Of a stretch of DNA of 24,000 bases, positions 9,239-18,490 are shown one piece after another. Numbering within the stretch: the first letter of the stretch is position 1; every line of letters starts with the position of its first letter. Position numbers and translations under genes: made by a program. Source of the stretch: Pseudomonas sp. MRSN 12121. Lineage in GTDB: Bacteria > Pseudomonadota > Gammaproteobacteria > Pseudomonadales > Pseudomonadaceae. The stretch spans positions 2,479,388-2,503,387 of the forward strand of contig NZ_CP010892.1 in assembly GCF_000931465.1 (NCBI RefSeq), read 5' to 3'. The notes below the pieces were generated by a model, which saw only the letters and a list, made by a program, of their open reading frames with translations, had not been told where the DNA came from and searched no databases.

Positions 9239-10846
9239 TCACTGCGCCTGCGCCACCAACTGCTTCCACTCCAGCCCGAAGCGCGCCAGGTATTTGCGCA
9301 GGCGGTCGGCGTCGTTGGCCTGGGCCTTGGTCTGGCGCGAGACGCCGAACAGTTTGCGTCCGGCATCGGACAGGCTGTCCGCCTGGCGACAGACCTCGAT
9401 CACCGCCTGCAACTGCAGGCGGTCGAACAGGTCGAGTTCGACGCTGTCGCCCAGCAGCGCGCCCAGCGAGTCCTGTTCCCGGCTCAAGCCCCAGGCATAA
9501 CGCAGGCGCTGGATTTCTTCCTCGACCTGGGCTTCGTCGATGCGCCCGCTGTCGGCCAGGGTGCCCATTCGGGTGATGGACGCCGACAGTTCGCGGAAGT
9601 TGCCCAGCCAGGCGGCCTCGCTGGAGCTGGCGAAGGCCAGGTAACGGCGCCGTGCCTCCAGGTTGAAGCGCACCAGTTGCCCTTGCTCCCGGGCGTGGCG
9701 CTCCAGCTCGAAGTCGATGTTCGGCTCGATGTCTTCGCGGCGTCCCGCCAGCCCCGGGAGGTTGAAGGTCCAGAGGTTGATCCGCGCATACAAGTCTTCG
9801 CGGAACAGCCCCTCGGCGACCCGGCCCCGCAGGTCGCGGTGGGTGCCGGCGATGATCAGGAAGTCGCTGGCGACCTCCTGGTCCGAACCCATGGGGAAGA
9901 AGCGCTTCTCCTCGATGGCCTTGAGCAGCATCGCCTGTTCGTCGAGGCCCAGTTCGCCGATCTCGTCGAGAAACAGCATGCCGCCGTCCGCCGCCCGCAG
10001 CAGGCCGTCGCGGGCGTTCTGGGCGCCGGTGAAGGCGCCCTTGATATGGCCGAACAGCGCCGACATGGCGCCGTCGCCGCGCAGGGTGGCGCAGTTGACT
10101 TCGACAAAGCGCCCCTGGACCTGATGCCGGCCGCGCTTGAGCTCATAGATACGCCGGGCCAGGAACGACTTGCCGGCGCCGGTGGGGCCGATCAGCAGCA
10201 TCGGCGCCCTGGAGCGCTCGGCCACCCGCTCGATCTGTTCGATGGAGCGGTTGAACGCGGCGTTGCGGGTGGCGATCCCGGACTTGAGGAAGGCCAGGCC
10301 CTCCAGGCGCTTGTGGGCGAAACGCGAGGCGATGCGGTCGTAGCGCGACAGGTCGAGATCGATCAGCGCGTGGGTGCCGGTGGCGTGTTGTTCCGGGTCG
10401 TGGCGCCGGGCCGGCGAGGTCTGGATCAGCCGGGCCGGCAGGTAGCGCGCCTCGGTCAGCAGGAACCAGCAGATCTGCGCCACATGGGTGCCGGTGGTGA
10501 TGTGCACCAGGTAATCCTCGCGCTCGGTGTCGAACGGGTAGGCGCTGGTGAAGTCGTGCAGGGCCGCGTACACCTCTTCGAAATCCCAGGGGTTCTTCAG
10601 GCCCATGGGGTGCAGGCGCACCTCGGTCTCGGGCGACACCTGGCGGATATCGTCGGCTACCCGCTGGGCCAGGCCGACGTCCCGGGCGTCCAGGCCGTGG
10701 ATCAGCTCCAGGCGCTGGATCAGCACATCCTGCTGCTGGCACAGGCCGACGCTGGGGCGCCAGTGGTTCCAGCGGTTGGCGCCCTTGCCCACGCGGTCGA
10801 GGGTGGAGCCGACAAAGCCTATGGCGACCGTAGGTTTGTTTGTCAT
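9239..10846 (-). CDS. rtcR: Sigma-54-dependent transcriptional activator RtcR (CARF-like N-domain + AAA+ + HTH)
   Basis: 535 aa. It has Walker A GPTGAGKS, the sigma-54 contact loop GAFTGA (KGAFTGAQ) and an RtcR-type N-terminus VAIGFVGSTLD. It is divergent from an operon that contains rtcB and rtcA. Confidence 0.9.
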   Translation of the reverse strand: MTNKPTVAIGFVGSTLDRVGKGANRWNHWRPSVGLCQQQDVLIQRLELIHGLDARDVGLAQRVADDIRQVSPETEVRLHPMGLKNPWDFEEVYAALHDFTSAYPFDTEREDYLVHITTGTHVAQICWFLLTEARYLPARLIQTSPARRHDPEQHATGTHALIDLDLSRYDRIASRFAHKRLEGLAFLKSGIATRNAAFNRSIEQIERVAERSRAPMLLIGPTGAGKSFLARRIYELKRGRHQVQGRFVEVNCATLRGDGAMSALFGHIKGAFTGAQNARDGLLRAADGGMLFLDEIGELGLDEQAMLLKAIEEKRFFPMGSDQEVASDFLIIAGTHRDLRGRVAEGLFREDLYARINLWTFNLPGLAGRREDIEPNIDFELERHAREQGQLVRFNLEARRRYLAFASSSEAAWLGNFRELSASITRMGTLADSGRIDEAQVEEEIQRLRYAWGLSREQDSLGALLGDSVELDLFDRLQLQAVIEVCRQADSLSDAGRKLFGVSRQTKAQANDADRLRKYLARFGLEWKQLVAQAQ

Positions 10847-10992: not shown

Positions 10993-11008
10993 TGGCACAG
11001 CGGCTGCA
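10993..11008 (+). promoter_or_regulatory. Sigma-54 (-24/-12) promoter of the rsr-rtcB operon
   Basis: TGGCAC-AGCGG-CTGCA matches the consensus TGGCAC-N5-TTGCW, with correct GG-to-GC spacing (GG 10994-10995, GC 11006-11007). It lies 43 nt upstream of the rsr ATG and opposite rtcR. Confidence 0.8.
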
Positions 11009-11050: not shown

Positions 11051-12601
11051 ATGGCCAACTTCCAGCTGTTCAACACCCGCCAGGCAGCAGCGCCAGCCAG
11101 CGACACCCTGAACGCTTCCCGGGCACCGGCTTACGCCTACAACGCCAAGCACCGCCTGGCCCAGCTGGTGGTGACCGGTTGCCTGAACTCGACCTTCTAC
11201 ACCTCGCCCGAAGGCCAGCTGGAAGCGGTGCTGCAACTGGTGAGCGAACTGGACAGCCGCTTCGTCGCCCAGGCCGCTCGGTACGCTCGGCAACAGGGCC
11301 ACATGAAAGACATGCCGGCCTTGCTGTTGGCCGCGCTGACCGCGCAGCGCTCGGCCCTGGTGCCGGAGCTGTTCGCCCAGGTGGTGGACAACGGCAAGAT
11401 GCTGCGCAACTACGTGCAGATCCTGCGCAGCGGCGTGACCGGGCGTAAATCCCTGGGTTCGCAGCCCAAGCGCCTGGTGCAGAACTGGTTGAACAGCGCC
11501 ACCGAGCGTCAGCTATTGCAGGCCGCGGTGGGTAACCAGCCGTCGCTGGCGGACCTGGTGAAGATGGTCCACCCCAAGCCGAGCGAGGCCTGGCGCGAAG
11601 CCTTCTTCGCCTGGTTGATCGGCAAGCCGGTGGATGCGCAGGCATTGCCCGAACTGACCCGCGCCTTGCTGGCCTTTCGCAGCGGTGCGACCACGCAAGT
11701 GCCGCCGGTGCCGTTCCAGCTGCTGGGTAACGAAACCCTGAGCGGCGAGCAATGGGCGGAGCAGGCGCGCAACATGGGCTGGCAGGGGCTGCGCATGAAC
11801 CTCAACACCCTGGCCCGCCACGGCGCGTTCCAGGTGCCGGGCTGCGCCGAGTATGTGGCGGCGCGGCTGGCGGATGCCGCCGAGGTGGCCAAGGCCCGGG
11901 TCTACCCGTACCAGTTGCTGGCGGCCTACCGCATGGCCGGCGACGAGGTGCCGCAGGTGGTGCGCGAGGCGTTGCAGGATGCCCTGGAACTGTCCCTGGC
12001 CAATGTGCCGGCGCTGCCGGGGAACGTGGTGGTGTGCCCGGATGTCTCGGGGTCGATGCACAGCCCGGTCACCGGCTATCGCCAGGGCGCGACCACGGCG
12101 GTACGTTGCATCGATGTGGCGGCGCTGGTGGCGGCAGCCGTGTTGCGCAAGCAGCCGGCGGCGCGCGTCATGCCCTTCGAGGTCGGGGTGGTGGATATCC
12201 GCCTCAACCCTCGGGACAGCGTGATGAGCAACGCGCAGAAACTGGCGGCCATCGGCGGTGGCGGGACCAACTGCTCGGCGCCCCTGGCACAGCTGGCCAA
12301 TGCCAAGTGCAAGGTGGATACCCTGATCCTGGTCTCGGACAACGAGTCGTGGATCGATGCGCGGCGCCACGGGGCGACCGAGACCCTGCGCCAGTGGGAG
12401 CGGATCAAGGCCATCAACCCGCAGGCGCGGCTGGTGTGCATCGATATGCAGCCCGGGGCGACCACCCAGGCGCCGGACCGCGCGGACATCCTCAACGTCG
12501 GCGGCTTCAGCGACGCGGTGTTCGACGTGATCCAGCAGTTCACCGCGGGCAACTACGGTGCGCAGCATTGGGTCAAGGCCATCGAGGCGCTGGCGCCCTG
12601 A
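11051..12601 (+). CDS. rsr: Ro60-related protein Rsr (TROVE domain + vWA domain)
   Basis: 516 aa. The N-terminal part is TROVE-like (NAKHRLAQLVVTGCLNSTFYTS). The C-terminal part is vWA with the MIDAS motif DVSGSM. Its position between rtcR and rtcB matches the Salmonella rsr-yrlBA-rtcBA layout. Confidence 0.85.
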   Translation: MANFQLFNTRQAAAPASDTLNASRAPAYAYNAKHRLAQLVVTGCLNSTFYTSPEGQLEAVLQLVSELDSRFVAQAARYARQQGHMKDMPALLLAALTAQRSALVPELFAQVVDNGKMLRNYVQILRSGVTGRKSLGSQPKRLVQNWLNSATERQLLQAAVGNQPSLADLVKMVHPKPSEAWREAFFAWLIGKPVDAQALPELTRALLAFRSGATTQVPPVPFQLLGNETLSGEQWAEQARNMGWQGLRMNLNTLARHGAFQVPGCAEYVAARLADAAEVAKARVYPYQLLAAYRMAGDEVPQVVREALQDALELSLANVPALPGNVVVCPDVSGSMHSPVTGYRQGATTAVRCIDVAALVAAAVLRKQPAARVMPFEVGVVDIRLNPRDSVMSNAQKLAAIGGGGTNCSAPLAQLANAKCKVDTLILVSDNESWIDARRHGATETLRQWERIKAINPQARLVCIDMQPGATTQAPDRADILNVGGFSDAVFDVIQQFTAGNYGAQHWVKAIEALAP

Positions 12602-12974: not shown

Positions 12975-13082
12975 GGCAGCGAATGCCACGGGTACTACAT
13001 GGTGTCGCGGGTTCGAGCCCCGCCAGCCGCAAGGCTGTAGCTCAGTCGGTAGAGCGAATGTGCCCGTTCCCTTGTCGCTGCC
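12975..13082 (+). ncRNA. YrlA-like Y RNA module 3 (permuted tRNA-like domain)
   Basis: The closing helix is GGCAGCGA (12975-12982)/TCGCTGCC (13075-13082). It has AUGCC and an 8-bp helix ACGGGTAC/GTGCCCGT. The T-arm is GCGGG-TTCGAGC-CCCGC (13007-13023). The acceptor CAGCC-GCAA-GGCTG (13024-13037) has a GNRA cap. After UA comes the D-arm GCTC-AGTCGGTA-GAGC (13040-13055). Confidence 0.78.
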
Positions 13083-13109
13083 CGCAGGCCAGGCCTGCAC
13101 CGATTGACC

Positions 13110-13224
13110 CGGCGAATGCCGGTGGAACTACAGGACAGCGTGGTCGCGGGTTCGATTCCCGCCAACCGCAAGGGGCTAGCTCAGTGGTAGAGCGCGCTGC
13201 ATGTTCCGCCTTCACTGGTCGCCG
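13110..13224 (+). ncRNA. YrlA-like Y RNA module 4 (permuted tRNA-like domain)
   Basis: The closing helix is CGGCGA (13110-13115)/TCGCCG (13219-13224). It has AUGCC and an 8-bp helix GGTGGAAC/GTTCCGCC (one G-U). The T-arm is GCGGG-TTCGATT-CCCGC (13146-13162). The acceptor CAACC-GCAA-GGGGC is weak, with only 2 Watson-Crick pairs. After UA comes the D-arm GCTC-AGTGGTA-GAGC (13179-13193). Confidence 0.72.
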
Positions 13225-13290
13225 TTTACGCCGCGCTGTCGGTCACCGAACAAGGTCGAATTGTCGACCACAGAAGAAAGAGCCAAGAAC

Positions 13291-14517
13291 ATGGAACACA
13301 AGACCTGGCAACTGCTGGAAGTCGCCAACGGCAAGCCGATCAAGATGTGGACCCAGGGCGTGCCCGTGGAAAACGAAGCCCGCCAGCAGCTGATGAATAC
13401 CGCGAAGATGCCGTTCATCTTCAAGCACCTGGCGGTGATGCCCGACGTGCACCTGGGCAAGGGTTCGACCATCGGCAGCGTGATCCCGACCCTGGGCGCG
13501 ATCATTCCCGCGGCCGTCGGCGTGGATATCGGCTGCGGCATGATCGCCGCCCGCACCTCGCTGACGGCGGCGGACCTGCCGGACAACCTGCACGGCCTGC
13601 GCTGCGCCATTGAAAGTGCCGTGCCCCATGGGCGTACCGCGCCGCGCAGCGGCCGCGACAAGGGCGCCTGGGGCGAGGTGCCGCAGCAGGCCGACCGGGT
13701 CTGGGCGACCTTGCATCCGCGCTTCAAGGCGATCACCGACAAGTACCCGGCGCTGGCCAAGAGCAACAACCGCCAGCACCTGGGAACGCTCGGTGGCGGC
13801 AACCACTTCATCGAAGTCTGCCTGGATGAAGCCAACCGGGTCTGGTTCATGCTGCACAGCGGTTCCCGTGGCGTGGGTAACGCGATCGGCAACCTGTTCA
13901 TCCAGCTGGCCCAGGCGGATATGCGCCAGCACATCGCCGATCTGCCACACCGGGATCTGGCGTATTTCAAGGAAGGTAGCCGGCACTTCGACGATTACGT
14001 CGAAGCCGTGGGCTGGGCCCAGGACTTCGCCCGGCAGAACCGCGAGTTGATGATGCAGGCGGTGATCCAGGCCACCCGCCAGGTGATCCGCAAACCCTTC
14101 GAGGTGGCGCTGGAGGCGGTGAACTGCCACCACAACTACGTGCAGAAGGAGCGTCATTTCGGTGAGGAGGTGCTGGTGACCCGCAAGGGCGCGGTGTCGG
14201 CGCAAAAGGGCGAGCTGGGGATCATCCCGGGGTCGATGGGGGCCAAGAGCTTCATCGTCCGCGGCCTGGGCAACGAGGAGGCGTTCTGCTCCTGCAGCCA
14301 TGGGGCCGGGCGCACCATGAGCCGCACCAAGGCCAAGGACACCTTCACCCTGGCCGACCAGATCCGCGCCACCGCCCATGTGGAATGCCGCAAGGACACG
14401 GCGGTGATCGATGAAATCCCGATGGCCTACAAGGACATCGACCAAGTCATGCACGCCCAGCGCGAGCTGGTGGAAGTGCTGCACACCCTGCGTCAGGTAG
14501 TGTGCGTAAAGGGGTAG
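13291..14517 (+). CDS. rtcB: RNA-splicing ligase RtcB (3'-phosphate/5'-hydroxyl RNA ligase)
   Basis: The start is reset to ATG 13291 (MEHKTWQLLEV...), giving 408 aa as in E. coli RtcB. It is collinear with my memory of E. coli RtcB (KMWTQGVPVE, ARQQLMNTAKMPFIFKHLAVMPDVHLGKGSTIGSV, VGVDIGCGM, GGGNHFIE, HSGSRGVGN, NCHHNY, SCSHGAGR). Confidence 0.95.
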   Translation: MEHKTWQLLEVANGKPIKMWTQGVPVENEARQQLMNTAKMPFIFKHLAVMPDVHLGKGSTIGSVIPTLGAIIPAAVGVDIGCGMIAARTSLTAADLPDNLHGLRCAIESAVPHGRTAPRSGRDKGAWGEVPQQADRVWATLHPRFKAITDKYPALAKSNNRQHLGTLGGGNHFIEVCLDEANRVWFMLHSGSRGVGNAIGNLFIQLAQADMRQHIADLPHRDLAYFKEGSRHFDDYVEAVGWAQDFARQNRELMMQAVIQATRQVIRKPFEVALEAVNCHHNYVQKERHFGEEVLVTRKGAVSAQKGELGIIPGSMGAKSFIVRGLGNEEAFCSCSHGAGRTMSRTKAKDTFTLADQIRATAHVECRKDTAVIDEIPMAYKDIDQVMHAQRELVEVLHTLRQVVCVKG

Positions 14518-14521
14518 AGCG

Positions 14522-15865
14522 ATGTACGACAGGGAAGCACTGATAGCGGTCCCGCCCAGCTGGCATGACCAGTTGAGCGATTACGAAGCCCGCCGCGTGC
14601 GGGAGGTGATGGACTCACTGGACAGGCACAGTGCCTGGCTGGAACTGAGCCGCTTCGGCAACGGTTTTGTGCGGCAGGCGGCGGTACGCGGGTTGGCCGT
14701 GCAGCCTTCGGCAGAGGCCCTGGCCGCTTTGCTGGAGCGCCTCAACGATTGGGTGCCCCAGGTCCGCCAGGAGGCCGCTGCGGCCGTCGAGGGTTATCTG
14801 GTGCCGGAGCATGCGGGCCTGCTGTTGCAGAACCTGGTGCCGCTGCTGACCCTGGCCGGCAAGCAGCGTGCGGACCATGGCGCCACCCTGGCCAGGGCCC
14901 GCTCGGTGTTGCAACTGCCCCAGGTCCGGGCTGAGGTCGAACGTGCCTTTGGCGCGTCTTTGGGCAAGGCGGCGCGTTTTGTCTTCGAGCTGTTGCTGGA
15001 AGGCGCGCCAGACCGTGCCGGGTTGCTGGCGATGGCGTTGCGGCACCGGGATGTCAGTGTCCAGCAGATGGCGGTGGATGCCTGTGCCGGGTTGCCCGGC
15101 GGGCAGGCGGTGCCGTTGCTGGAGGAGGTGCTGCAGCGCTGCAGCGCCAGCGTTCGGGTCAAGGCTCTGCGGCTGTTGTTGCCGTTGCTGGCCGACCCCG
15201 GCGCGCCTCTGCGCCAGGGGTTGCTCGACCCTTCGGCAGCCATGCGTTGCCTGGCACTCTGGGCGGCCCCGCGGTATGGGCTGGACCCGCACGCAGTGCT
15301 GCAGGCCCGGTTGCTCGAGCCGGCGCCGCGGAACAAGCGTGGATGGCTGGGCCTGCTGGGGCTGGTCAAGGAACTGCAGGAGCTCCGGGCCGACGCCATG
15401 GTGCAACAGGCCCTGGCCTCGCCGGCGCCGAGCGTGCGTCTGCTGGCACTGCAGGTCCTCGACGAGCGGGGCCCGTCCGAGCAGCTCGCGGCCCTGGACG
15501 ACCCGGCGGACAAGGTCTTCAACGCTGCCCTGAGCCTGTTGCACAGGCAGCCGTGGGCGGTGTTCGAGCCGGCCCTGGAGCAGCGTCTGGACCAGCATTG
15601 GCATGCGCTGCCAGCAGCGCGTCGCCAGGCCATGCTGGGGCTCAAGCCCGGTTGGCGCCAGGTGCAATACCTGCTGCATCGCCTGGATCGGGCGGACAGT
15701 GACGCCGGCTACTGGCGCGAGACCCTGGCCCGTTGGTGCGATGCCCGCTATGTGATGTTCGACCCGGTGACTCCCAAGCCTGTGCGCGAGCAGCTGGCGC
15801 AGCGGTTACGGGTCATGGAAGAGGCCGGCGAACTGCCGCCGGGGTCGGTCAAGCGCCTGCTGTGA
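14522..15865 (+). CDS. HEAT-repeat (PBS-lyase-like) alpha-solenoid protein of unknown function
   Basis: 447 aa. Its start lies 4 nt after the rtcB stop, with an AAGGGG Shine-Dalgarno-like sequence upstream, and GC3 is high. It is Leu/Ala-rich with recurring motifs of the type xVRxxAxxxL (VRQAAVRGLA, VRQEAAAAVEGYL, VSVQQMAVDACAGL, VRVKALRLLLPLL, VRLLALQVL). No catalytic motif was recognised. Confidence 0.7.
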   Translation: MYDREALIAVPPSWHDQLSDYEARRVREVMDSLDRHSAWLELSRFGNGFVRQAAVRGLAVQPSAEALAALLERLNDWVPQVRQEAAAAVEGYLVPEHAGLLLQNLVPLLTLAGKQRADHGATLARARSVLQLPQVRAEVERAFGASLGKAARFVFELLLEGAPDRAGLLAMALRHRDVSVQQMAVDACAGLPGGQAVPLLEEVLQRCSASVRVKALRLLLPLLADPGAPLRQGLLDPSAAMRCLALWAAPRYGLDPHAVLQARLLEPAPRNKRGWLGLLGLVKELQELRADAMVQQALASPAPSVRLLALQVLDERGPSEQLAALDDPADKVFNAALSLLHRQPWAVFEPALEQRLDQHWHALPAARRQAMLGLKPGWRQVQYLLHRLDRADSDAGYWRETLARWCDARYVMFDPVTPKPVREQLAQRLRVMEEAGELPPGSVKRLL

Positions 15866-15938
15866 ACAAGATTGCAGGTGGACGATCAGGCAAGCGTTGC
15901 CGGTGCCGGCGACCACCGATTGAAAAGGACAAGGAACA

Positions 15939-16727
15939 ATGCAACACCATGAACCCCACCCGCTGGACAGCGCGATGCGCGAGCGGGTACTGAGCGAGCT
16001 GGCGCGGATCGAGCGCGAGCGCAATGTGCGGGTGCTGTATGCCTGCGAATCCGGTAGCCGGGCCTGGGGCTTCGCCTCCACCGACAGCGATTACGACGTG
16101 CGTTTCGTCTATGTGGAAAAGCCCGAGTGGTTCATCCAGGTGGACCCCGGTCGGGATGTGATTGAGCGTCCCCTGGACGACGAGCTGGACGTCAGCGGCT
16201 GGGAGCTGCGCAAGACCCTCGGGCTGTTGCGCAAGTCCAACCCGACCCTGCTGGAGTGGCTGGATTCGCCCCTGGTGTATCGCAGTGAGCCGGCGGCCAC
16301 CGCGCGCCTGCGCGAGCTGGCCGAGGCGTTCTACAGCCCGCCGGCGGCGCGCAATCATTATCTGTCGATGGCCAGGAAGAATTTTCGCGGTTATCTGCAA
16401 GGCGACAGCGTGCGCTTCAAGAAGTACTTCTACGTGCTCCGGCCGTTGCTGGCGGTGCGCTGGATCGATCAGGGCCGCGGCCGGCCGCCGATGACCTTCG
16501 CCGAGCTGCTGGACACTGTCGACCATCGGCCGCTGCTGGACGAAGTGGATGAGTTGCTGGCCTTGAAGCGCAATGCCGACGAGTCCGCCTACGGGCCACG
16601 GCGAACGGCGCTGCATGCCTTTATCGCCGCCGAACTGGAACGCCCGGTGCCGAAGCTGCCGCGCACCCATCAAGACAATGCGTGGCTGGACGCCTACTTG
16701 CGAGAAACCGTCCGGCACTACGCCTGA
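15939..16727 (+). CDS. Pol-beta-superfamily nucleotidyltransferase (RlaP / PF10127-like, RtcB-associated)
   Basis: 262 aa, with AAGGA upstream of the ATG. The motif CESGSRAWGFASTDSDYDV matches the G[SG]-x(9-13)-DxD minimal nucleotidyltransferase signature. The RlaP family name is from my recollection of comparative-genomic literature and is not verified here. Confidence 0.75.
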   Translation: MQHHEPHPLDSAMRERVLSELARIERERNVRVLYACESGSRAWGFASTDSDYDVRFVYVEKPEWFIQVDPGRDVIERPLDDELDVSGWELRKTLGLLRKSNPTLLEWLDSPLVYRSEPAATARLRELAEAFYSPPAARNHYLSMARKNFRGYLQGDSVRFKKYFYVLRPLLAVRWIDQGRGRPPMTFAELLDTVDHRPLLDEVDELLALKRNADESAYGPRRTALHAFIAAELERPVPKLPRTHQDNAWLDAYLRETVRHYA

Positions 16728-16735
16728 GGAGCCTC

Positions 16736-17779
16736 ATGAAACAGGACGTCATCGAACTGGACGGCGCCATCGGCGGCGGCCAGGTACTGCGCAGTGCCCT
16801 GAGCTTGTCGATGCTCACCGGCAAAACCCTGCGGATTCACAACATACGGGCCCGGCGCGCCCGCCCGGGGCTGCTGCGCCAGCACCTGACCGCGGTACAG
16901 GCGGCCGCGCAGATCAGCGGGGCCAGGGTCCTGGGCGCCGAGCTGGGTTCCCGGGCGCTGACCTTCGAGCCGGGGCCGATTCGCGGCGGCGACTACCGCT
17001 TCGCCATCGGCACCGCCGGCAGCTGCACCCTGGTGTTGCAGACGCTGCTGCCGGCCTTGCTCCAGGCGCCGCAGCCGAGCCGCGTGAGCATCAGCGGCGG
17101 CACCCACAACCCCCTGGCGCCGCCGGTGGATTTCCTCCAGCAGGCTTGGCTGCCGCTACTGCGGCGCATGGGTGCACGGGTGGAATTGCAACTGCTGCGC
17201 CACGGTTTCGTTCCCGCTGGCGGCGGTGAGCTGGAGGCGTTCATCCAGCCGTCGACGCTGCACCCTTTGCACCTGGAACAGCGTGGCGCCGTGCTCGGAC
17301 GCCGGGCCTGGGCCTTGAGTGCCGGCTTGCCCGCGCATGTGGCGGAACGCGAGTTGCAGCGGGTTGGCCAGCGCCTGGATCTGCCGGCGGAACACCTGAG
17401 CCCGGTGCATCTGGAGGAACAATGTGGCCCGGGCAACGTGTTATTGCTGGCGTTCGCCTGCGAGCACCTGACCGAAGTGTTCAGCGGTTTCGGCCAGAGC
17501 AGCCAGCGCGCGGAAAGCGTGGCCGACGGTGCCATCGACCAGGCCCGGGACTGGCTGGACTCCGGCGTCGCAGTAGCGGAGCACCTGGCCGATCAACTGC
17601 TGCTACCCATGGCCCTGGCCGGTGGTGGAAGCTTCACCACCCCACGCATGAGCGAGCACCTGCAAAGCAATATCCGGGTGATCGAGGCGTTTTTGCCGGT
17701 GCGTATCGACTGTTCGGCGCACTCCCGGGAAGTCCTGCGGGTCGAGGTTCTGCCAATCGCCCCCTGGCGTCTAAGCTAG
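16736..17779 (+). CDS. rtcA: RNA 3'-terminal phosphate cyclase RtcA
   Basis: The start is reset to ATG 16736, with GAGGA 5 nt upstream and 8 nt after the previous stop. The 347-aa protein is collinear with E. coli RtcA as recalled (GGGQVLRSALSLSMLTG, RPGLLRQHLTAV, GGDYRFAIGTAGSCTLVLQTLLPAL, LLRHGFVPAGGG, EHLADQLLLPMALAG). Confidence 0.93.
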   Translation: MKQDVIELDGAIGGGQVLRSALSLSMLTGKTLRIHNIRARRARPGLLRQHLTAVQAAAQISGARVLGAELGSRALTFEPGPIRGGDYRFAIGTAGSCTLVLQTLLPALLQAPQPSRVSISGGTHNPLAPPVDFLQQAWLPLLRRMGARVELQLLRHGFVPAGGGELEAFIQPSTLHPLHLEQRGAVLGRRAWALSAGLPAHVAERELQRVGQRLDLPAEHLSPVHLEEQCGPGNVLLLAFACEHLTEVFSGFGQSSQRAESVADGAIDQARDWLDSGVAVAEHLADQLLLPMALAGGGSFTTPRMSEHLQSNIRVIEAFLPVRIDCSAHSREVLRVEVLPIAPWRLS

Positions 17780-17860
17780 CGCCTTGCGGATTTCCAGCAG
17801 GGAAGTGAACGAGCGGCGCAGTTCGCCGGTCGCAAGATGCAGTCAACCGAGGAAATGCTC

Positions 17861-18490
17861 ATGTATCAGCTTTATGGGTCCCAGGGCTCCGGCTCGGCGA
17901 TTGTCGAGATCGCCCTCGAACAGTGCCAGGTGCCGTATCGCATCGTCGAAGCCGCGTCCTGGAAGCCATCGCCCGGGGCCGACGAGCTGGCGCGGCTCAA
18001 CCCCTTGCAGCAGATTCCAACCCTGCAACTGCCCGATGGCAGCGTATTGACCGAGAGCGCGGCGATCCTGATCGAGCTGGGCTTGCGGCACCCGCGGTCG
18101 GCGCTGCTGCCCGAGGATGAGGCGGCCCGCGCGCAGGCCATTCGCGGGCTGGTGTATATCGCCGCCAACTGTTACTCGGCGATCGGCATCATCGATTACC
18201 CGGAGCGCTGGCTGCAGGACGCCGACGAGTCGGCGAGGGCGCGCTTGCGCGACTCGGTCCGTGAGCGCCTGCATTATCACTGGAAGCTGTTCGCCGATCA
18301 GTTTTCGGCCTGCTTGTATGCCAGCGGATCCCCCTTGGCGGCCCTGGATTTCCAGGCGGCGGTGGTGTCGCGCTGGTCCGGCGCGCGCGACTGTCTGCGG
18401 CGCGAGCGGCCCGGCTTCTGCGACGTGCTGGAGCGGATCGACCGCCATCCGCAGGTCGCGCCGGTGCTGGCGCGGCACTGGCCGGACTGA
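17861..18490 (+). CDS. Glutathione S-transferase family protein
   Basis: The start is chosen at ATG 17861, 8 nt after GAGGA. The N-terminal thioredoxin-like GST fold is visible in MYQLYG..., NPLQQIPTLQLPDGSVLTESAAILIEL. The in-frame ATGs at 17837 and 17855 are less well spaced. Confidence 0.8.
   Translation: MYQLYGSQGSGSAIVEIALEQCQVPYRIVEAASWKPSPGADELARLNPLQQIPTLQLPDGSVLTESAAILIELGLRHPRSALLPEDEAARAQAIRGLVYIAANCYSAIGIIDYPERWLQDADESARARLRDSVRERLHYHWKLFADQFSACLYASGSPLAALDFQAAVVSRWSGARDCLRRERPGFCDVLERIDRHPQVAPVLARHWPD

Follow-up and report, generated by a model that had tools for sequence, protein, structure and literature searches.

Rtc is the best-studied bacterial RNA repair pathway, and its physiological substrates and accessory factors are poorly defined. 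Here, we analysed a stretch of 24,000 nucleotides (nt) from Pseudomonas sp. MRSN 12121 (contig NZ_CP010892.1, positions 2,479,388 to 2,503,387; hereafter the window). This window carries an rtc operon in the order rsr, two YrlA-type Y RNA genes, rtcB, a gene for a HEAT-like alpha-solenoid protein (hereafter HEAT), rlaP and rtcA, with rtcR transcribed divergently (Table 1). The original prediction, which had been made from the letters of the window, placed two extra genes of 447 and 262 amino acids (aa) between rtcB and rtcA, and both open reading frames (ORFs) were confirmed. The junctions were also as predicted, since the HEAT ATG starts 4 nt after the rtcB stop codon (TAG, 14515-14517) and an 8-nt gap separates the rlaP stop codon (TGA, 16725-16727) from the rtcA ATG at 16736. 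The findings presented here indicate that HEAT is a real and, as far as we searched, previously undescribed accessory of a known RNA repair system.

The operon shows the arrangement of an RtcR-controlled Rtc operon: rtcR is divergent, the promoter is of the sigma-54 type, and rtcB and rtcA share a strand. In a consensus scan, the sigma-54 -24/-12 element upstream of rsr was the sole match across the window, where 0.07 were expected by chance. Consensus scans inside the operon detected neither a sigma-70-like promoter nor a plus-strand terminator, and the layout suggests that one transcript would run from rsr to rtcA. All six products and the Y RNAs, which had been proposed to form one module, indeed lie behind this single sigma-54 site. 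The E. coli rtcR-rtcBA and Salmonella rtcR-rsr-yrlBA-rtcBA operons share with the window the divergent rtcR, the sigma-54 promoter, rsr and YrlA located 5' of rtcB, and rtcA in the last position (PMC3854526). They differ from it in that the window has two extra genes between rtcB and rtcA. ORFs interposed between rtcB and rtcA had been mentioned for some taxa, their identities not being given (Das and Shuman 2013, PMC3854526).

Table 1. Features of the rtc locus in the window, with the evidence for each assignment.
Feature	Coordinates	Strand	Assignment and evidence
rtcR	9239-10846	-	Sigma-54-dependent activator of the RNA repair operon, divergent; NCBIfam RNA_repair_RtcR 838.6 bits (cut-off 650); Pfam RtcR and Sigma54_activat
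Sigma-54 -24/-12 element	10993-11008	+	TGGCAC-N5-CTGCA (TGGCACAGCGGCTGCA), 43 nt 5' of rsr
rsr	11051-12601	+	Ro60-like RNA-binding protein; Pfam vWA_Ro60 (E 8.9e-22) and TROVE (E 9e-6)
YrlA-type Y RNA genes (two)	12976-13084, 13109-13228	+	Rfam RF02553, 71.9 and 72 bits (gathering score 69)
rtcB	13291-14517 (ORF call from 13201)	+	RNA 3'-phosphate ligase; Pfam RtcB (E 1.6e-129)
HEAT	14522-15865	+	HEAT-like alpha-solenoid, 447 aa; Pfam HEAT_2; predicted all-helical model
Spacer	15866-15938	+	73 nt; relic of the end of gene X, followed by the rlaP ribosome-binding site; alignment with related loci
rlaP	15939-16727	+	Pol-beta nucleotidyltransferase, 262 aa; Pfam PF10127, 323 bits
rtcA	16736-17779	+	RNA 3'-terminal phosphate cyclase; NCBIfam PRK04204.1-2, 473 bits (cut-off 352); Pfam RTC and RTC_insert

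The HEAT protein matched a single Pfam model, HEAT_2 (40 bits against a cut-off of 27.7). Its AlphaFold2 model, built with 47 homologues, was all-helical, with about 30 helices (predicted local distance difference test, pLDDT, 92.9; predicted template modelling score, pTM, 0.81). A repeat model above threshold and a predicted fold of helical hairpins identify it as a HEAT-like alpha-solenoid. The Foldseek comparison with PDB that the original prediction had called for supported the solenoid fold of the predicted model and went no further, as the 50 listed matches were generic solenoids only (alphaRep, PP2A-A, importin-alpha, CAND1 and AP2). The best global fold similarity was to the PP2A A subunit (template modelling score for the query, TMq, up to 0.41). 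When PDB sequences were searched with a HEAT profile, only artificial alphaRep proteins were retrieved (E 3e-20); hence, neither this search nor Foldseek yielded a specific relative of solved structure. Most of the invariant residues (the NDWVPQVR block and the repeated VR..A positions) belong to the structural repeat consensus. A loop outside this consensus, R116-x-D118-H119, was conserved as well, R116 and H119 being invariant and D118 present in at least 90% of the sequences. The protein is mildly basic (isoelectric point 8.7, net charge +3).

The closest database copy of HEAT, labelled P. chlororaphis, was 97% identical, and database hits were frequently named 'PBS lyase'. The Pseudomonas species named in these hits are non-photosynthetic and have no phycobilisomes. 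HEAT shares the repeat consensus D..VR..A with alphaRep and with the PBS-lyase HEAT-like proteins CpcE/F and NblB, but its scores were far under the cut-offs for the latter (NblB, 16.6 bits against 300; CpcE chain 5n3u_A, E 0.61), and a function as phycobilin lyase or NblB was rejected. Judged from these scores, 'PBS lyase' is a repeat-family name only, and a misleading annotation that is hereby corrected for many of these proteins. An analogy with the TROVE ring of Ro60, which the original prediction had drawn, turned out to be generic. The Ro60-like Rsr and HEAT are each built of alpha-helical repeats and share an operon, but no relationship was detectable: hhalign gave a probability of 0.1% against the Rsr of the window, HEAT had no TROVE or vWA match in Pfam, and Ro60 was absent among the 50 listed Foldseek matches. 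Homology to Ro60 was therefore discarded. The statement that HEAT was not a described RNA repair component held for the searchable literature: a search that did not include the survey of Burroughs and Aravind 2016 found no paper linking a HEAT or 'PBS lyase' protein to rtcB.

In order to survey gene neighbourhoods, a conserved HEAT peptide was used to recover 264 genome loci with a relative (designated by L numbers). The best 80 of the 264 were examined by searching their flanks with the six proteins of the window. In 36 of the 80 loci rtcB lay directly upstream of HEAT; rtcR was present in nearly all of these, and RlaP and rtcA in most. The rtc-linked loci extended to Betaproteobacteria (Rhodocyclaceae, Azoarcus, Azonexus and Chitinolyticbacter), and the linkage to rtcB and rtcA was found with or without rsr. 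At least eight gene orders were present: rtcB-HEAT-X-RlaP-rtcA, the commonest, in which X is a third accessory gene described below; rtcB-HEAT-RlaP-rtcA, shared by the window and others; rtcB-HEAT-X-rtcA; rtcB-X-HEAT-rtcA; rsr-rtcB-X-RlaP-HEAT-rtcA; rtcB-HEAT-rtcA; Band7-rtcB-HEAT, in some P. aeruginosa strains (L095-L097); and rtcB-rtcA-HEAT, with a 4-nt overlap of HEAT and rtcA, in locus L103. Furthermore, the three most distant relatives obtained in a protein search (26-35% identity) were all located in rtc operons. The linkage between HEAT and the rtc genes that had been put forward for survey was thus found in divergent members of the family, but it was not universal. The exceptions formed two derived clades of solitary genes, and several of these genes belong to genomes that lack RtcB.

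Two arrangements within this survey deserve mention in their own right. The P. aeruginosa loci L095-L097 carry a divergent rtcR followed by Band_7, rtcB and HEAT, without RlaP, and L095 retains a 24-residue remnant of rtcA. Strain PAO1 has been described as carrying PA4582, rtcB, PA4584 and rtcA (PMC8619066), and therefore the content of the rtc operon differs between strains of P. aeruginosa. In addition, in a metagenomic rtc operon, the gene immediately preceding the HEAT homologue (L102:1729-2652) encodes a product of 307 aa that carries an N-terminal zinc-ribbon (Pfam zf_Tbcl) and whose C-terminal part looked HEAT-like by eye. A different gene, of 207 aa, follows rtcB in this operon.

A maximum-likelihood tree of 70 HEAT proteins, rooted at its midpoint, placed the solitary genes in two well-supported clades nested among rtc-linked ones, which were basal and paraphyletic. 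The linked or solitary label required two changes on this tree, and none of 500 label shuffles needed as few. With the caveat that the tree is midpoint-rooted only, we read the rtc linkage as ancestral, with two escapes. One solitary clade reached metagenome-assembled genomes (MAGs) from outside Pseudomonas, labelled Pelagibacterium and Pigmentiphaga, an apparent horizontal spread. The same 43 residues were conserved at 93% or more whether the genes were rtc-linked or solitary, without any clade-specific shift. The neighbourhoods of solitary genes were heterogeneous: no neighbour family was common to more than 7 of 43 loci in a noisy ORF clustering, the largest ORF cluster came from an antisense reading frame within HEAT, and spot-checked loci showed unrelated contexts that differed by lineage. 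Among four complete genomes with a solitary copy, three lacked RtcB.

These results bear on whether HEAT could be a passenger without any role in RNA repair, that is, a mobile solitary gene landing repeatedly in a permissive interval between rtcB and rtcA. Solitary genes in variable contexts make up over half of the 80 loci, RtcB is missing from most of the complete genomes just mentioned, and the rtcB-rtcA interval takes other insertions too (Das and Shuman 2013, PMC3854526), all of which would suit such a gene. However, two losses of linkage are enough to account for the tree, which has rtc-linked proteins at its base. Moreover, chance insertion would not give a linkage that is still seen at 26% identity and that spans two proteobacterial classes and eight or more gene orders, and the tight spacing on the same strand also argues against it. 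We consider a passenger improbable.

Comparison with 12 orthologous loci gave a ratio of non-synonymous to synonymous substitution rates (dN/dS) of 0.19-0.49 for HEAT, with 10 of the 12 values between 0.2 and 0.3. Five neighbour genes showed 0.08-0.28 across the same loci. The dN of HEAT was about three times that of these neighbours, and its dS was likewise higher. HEAT is therefore a real coding gene under purifying selection, evolving faster than the enzymes of the operon. In the closest retrievable operon (L016, with HEAT at L016:8001-9341), the flanking genes were 92-97% identical to those of the window and HEAT only 77%, with a dS of 0.49 against 0.14-0.27 for the neighbours; the HEAT allele may have been replaced through recombination inside the operon. 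Regarding its frequency, among 201 evenly sampled genomes of Pseudomonadaceae species, RtcB was found in 108, RlaP in 22, X in 13 and HEAT in 9. Six of the nine HEAT genomes carried the gene in an rtc gene cluster (three directly after rtcB), two carried a solitary copy and one a pseudogene, while X was directly beside rtcB in 11 of its 13 genomes. HEAT is thus a sporadic accessory and not a core part of the Rtc system.

The elevated non-synonymous change and the higher dS, together with a patchy distribution and the apparent spread of a solitary clade to MAGs of other genera, would also be expected if HEAT were a conflict-facing decoy or inhibitor that binds a ribotoxin or a phage factor while the enzymes of the operon mend the damage done. 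HEAT models in PADLOC gave weak matches that point in the same direction, but these were generic repeats (E 5e-6 and 2e-3) and PHROGs gave none, so that assignment to a defence or phage family was rejected. Besides, the overall dN/dS is well below 1, no toxin gene was found among the conserved neighbours, and the clades do not differ in the most conserved surface, as they would at an interface shaped by an arms race. We give a decoy little credence.

The second interposed gene encodes a protein that matched PF10127 along the entire model (323.1 bits against a cut-off of 23; residues 13-255 corresponding to model positions 1-248 of 249), in line with the resemblance to RlaP noticed in the original prediction. 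The family name was reportedly given by Burroughs and Aravind in 2016. The Pol-beta motif, hG[GS]-x9-13-Dh[DE]h plus a third acidic residue, is present as G39-S40-x10-D51-Y52-D53-V54 with D84 as the third aspartate. The spacing between GS and DxD is therefore ten residues and not the eleven initially given. G39, D51, D53 and D84 were invariant in 32 orthologues, down to 56% identity. A PHROG nucleotidyltransferase matched as well (E 1.1e-93). A PDB sequence search had no match. Since rlaP was also in the same operon as rtcB in the window and 29 related loci, its genomic neighbourhood is that of an RNA ligase. By sequence and context, the 262-aa protein is a bona fide RlaP.

RlaP had been considered a family without known substrate, a view that is now out of date. 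Carruthers, Fatma and Huang (bioRxiv, 30 December 2025, doi 10.64898/2025.12.29.696909) studied PfRlaP and PaRlaP, from rtcB-rlaP-rtcA operons of P. fluorescens and P. aeruginosa, respectively. In vitro, both added 1-2 nucleoside monophosphates (NMPs) to RNA 3'-OH ends, accepted RNA as the only macromolecular substrate and favoured the 5' half of a cleaved-tRNA mimic; an RlaP crystal structure at 2.1 Å was also reported. The authors proposed that RlaP replaces nucleotides lost to ribotoxins that cut and trim. They pointed to an open problem: RtcB requires a 3'-phosphate, but RlaP leaves a 3'-OH on its product. According to them, either an RNA 3'-kinase or a step of trimming is missing. The RlaP of the window shares with PfRlaP and PaRlaP the full PF10127 match, the Pol-beta G-S...DxD...D residues and the position between rtcB and rtcA in an rtcR-controlled Pseudomonas operon, and by homology it would add 1-2 NMPs to RNA 3'-OH ends. 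The operon diagrams of that preprint highlight only rtcR, rtcB, rlaP and rtcA, while the operon of the window adds rsr, the Y RNAs and HEAT. The RlaP part of the locus, including its position between rtcB and rtcA in Pseudomonas, was therefore already known.

Many sister operons carry a third accessory gene between HEAT and RlaP, here called X, of about 209 aa (e.g., L011:9361-9990). In the window, the spacer between HEAT and rlaP retains GCG ACC ACC GAT TGA, which reads ATTD-stop and aligns with the AS[AT]TD C-terminus of X in L013, L016 and L032. L013 (9342-9490) has lost an internal part of X but retains both ends of the gene. Because the spacer holds this relic and L013 shows a partial X, the alignments indicate that the window has lost X except for its last codons and that its HEAT-RlaP arrangement is a derived, reduced form. 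X had no Pfam or PDB sequence match, nothing in PHROGs and generic repeat matches only in PADLOC, and all database names listed for it were 'hypothetical protein'. The AlphaFold2 model of X (L011:9361-9987) had a pLDDT of 81 and a pTM of 0.81. Its best PDB fold match, human Maf1 (3nr5), was weak (Foldseek E 4.6e-3, probability 0.99, TM 0.40/0.49) and had no sequence-level support. Maf1 is a eukaryotic repressor of RNA polymerase III, and the likeness, if real, would be of interest because the operon responds to damaged tRNA. Like HEAT, X has solitary members too. Altogether, HEAT, RlaP and X constitute a cassette of accessory genes that, in Pseudomonas and some Betaproteobacteria, are combined and ordered in various ways between rtcB and rtcA.

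A helical-repeat accessory of RtcB has a precedent. In the RFH(PrfH)-RtcB systems, a TPR solenoid is encoded beside RtcB, sometimes with a Pol-beta nucleotidyltransferase, and a scaffold function has been predicted for it (Burroughs and Aravind 2019, PMC6514570). HEAT resembles it in being an alpha-helical repeat protein encoded beside RtcB, but the repeats are HEAT-like instead of TPR, the RtcB system there is linked to PrfH, and the likeness is not one of shown homology. We count this precedent in favour of the adaptor reading given below. Alternatively, HEAT might be a dedicated protein-protein scaffold in the manner of PP2A A, an obligate subunit that joins RtcB with RlaP, X or RtcA. The fold similarity to the PP2A A scaffold (TMq 0.41), the position of HEAT directly after rtcB with 4-nt spacing in the closest loci and the overlap with rtcA in L103 are in favour of this possibility. 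Nevertheless, no accessory partner was constant, as HEAT occurred with rtcB alone (L095-L097), without RlaP (L025, L100 and L101) and without X (the window), and the solitary clades show no change of the conserved residues even where the genome has no RtcB. An obligate scaffold is therefore unlikely, though it deserves consideration.

A regulatory role was also weighed, in which HEAT would tune the induction of the operon by binding either the particle of Rsr and Y RNA or the CARF domain of RtcR. For E. coli, binding of this domain by RtcA and RtcB has been reported (PMC9650030), and rtcR is beside nearly all the rtc-linked HEAT loci. In contrast, the linkage of HEAT is to rtcB and rtcA irrespective of rsr, solitary copies exist in genomes without RtcB and have no rtc gene, rtcR included, in their examined flanks, and no sequence feature points to regulation. 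We regard this role as very improbable.

Taking these results together, we favour a reading, to which we assign a probability of roughly 55%, in which HEAT is a non-catalytic adaptor in RNA repair and RlaP a nucleotide-restoring enzyme. According to this model, RlaP would add one or two NMPs to the 3'-OH of broken RNA, preferably to the 5' half of a cleaved tRNA, so that a nucleotide trimmed by a ribotoxin would be replaced before ligation. HEAT, a predicted alpha-solenoid of about 14-15 helical hairpins that bears no catalytic signature, would serve as a binding platform. With a start codon 4 nt after rtcB, it is probably translated together with RtcB. We infer that it binds a partner present in every cell, such as broken tRNA or rRNA, the ribosome or a ubiquitous protein, and that it would hold or present this partner for the repair enzymes. 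Solitary copies in genomes that lack RtcB retain the same set of conserved residues, and the conserved surface of HEAT therefore probably recognises a universal partner rather than RtcB itself. It is for this reason, that is, because the surface likely recognises something common to all cells, that we prefer the term substrate adaptor to that of obligate RtcB scaffold.

Several observations weigh against the adaptor model. In 44 of the 80 examined loci HEAT was solitary, with no rtc gene (rtcR included) within the available flanks, and it thus has an existence outside RNA repair operons. The family is rare, and RNA repair clearly works without it. The invariant residues are, on sequence comparison, mostly structural consensus with no obvious ligand site, the charge of the protein gives no indication of RNA binding, and the partner proposed above is an inferred one. 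A more specific version of the model is that HEAT, alone or with X, acts as a damage-recognition or end-handling factor that couples RlaP to RtcB, capturing trimmed tRNA halves and, once RlaP has extended them, delivering their ends to be converted to a ligatable 3'-phosphate. We hold this version to be speculative and quite unlikely.

As for the remaining genes of the locus, the longest rtcB ORF opens inside the second YrlA match, and RtcB relatives align from residue 8-34 on only. Because of this overlap and because the N-terminus is E. coli-like from M31 onwards, the start was set to M31, at 13291. RtcB most likely begins there and comprises 408 aa, and the first 30 codons of the listed ORF would be untranslated. 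The rsr product matched the NCBIfam Rsr model below its cut-off. A glutathione S-transferase-like gene (17837-18490) lies on the same strand 57 nt past rtcA, and the scan detected no terminator between them. At least one further RtcB-family paralogue is located far from the window (G000 C1:4786141-4786887), and the genome has three Pfam RtcB matches.

The newly reported activity of RlaP does not fit the chemistry of RtcB on its own. The cassette that parts rtcB from rtcA in Pseudomonas and some Betaproteobacteria, with up to three genes, contains two proteins without described function, and these, HEAT and X, are testable candidates for the missing partners of RlaP and RtcB. If HEAT does couple RlaP to RtcB, the end-compatibility problem raised in the RlaP preprint would be solved, and the Rtc operon would encode a multi-subunit bacterial RNA repair machine.

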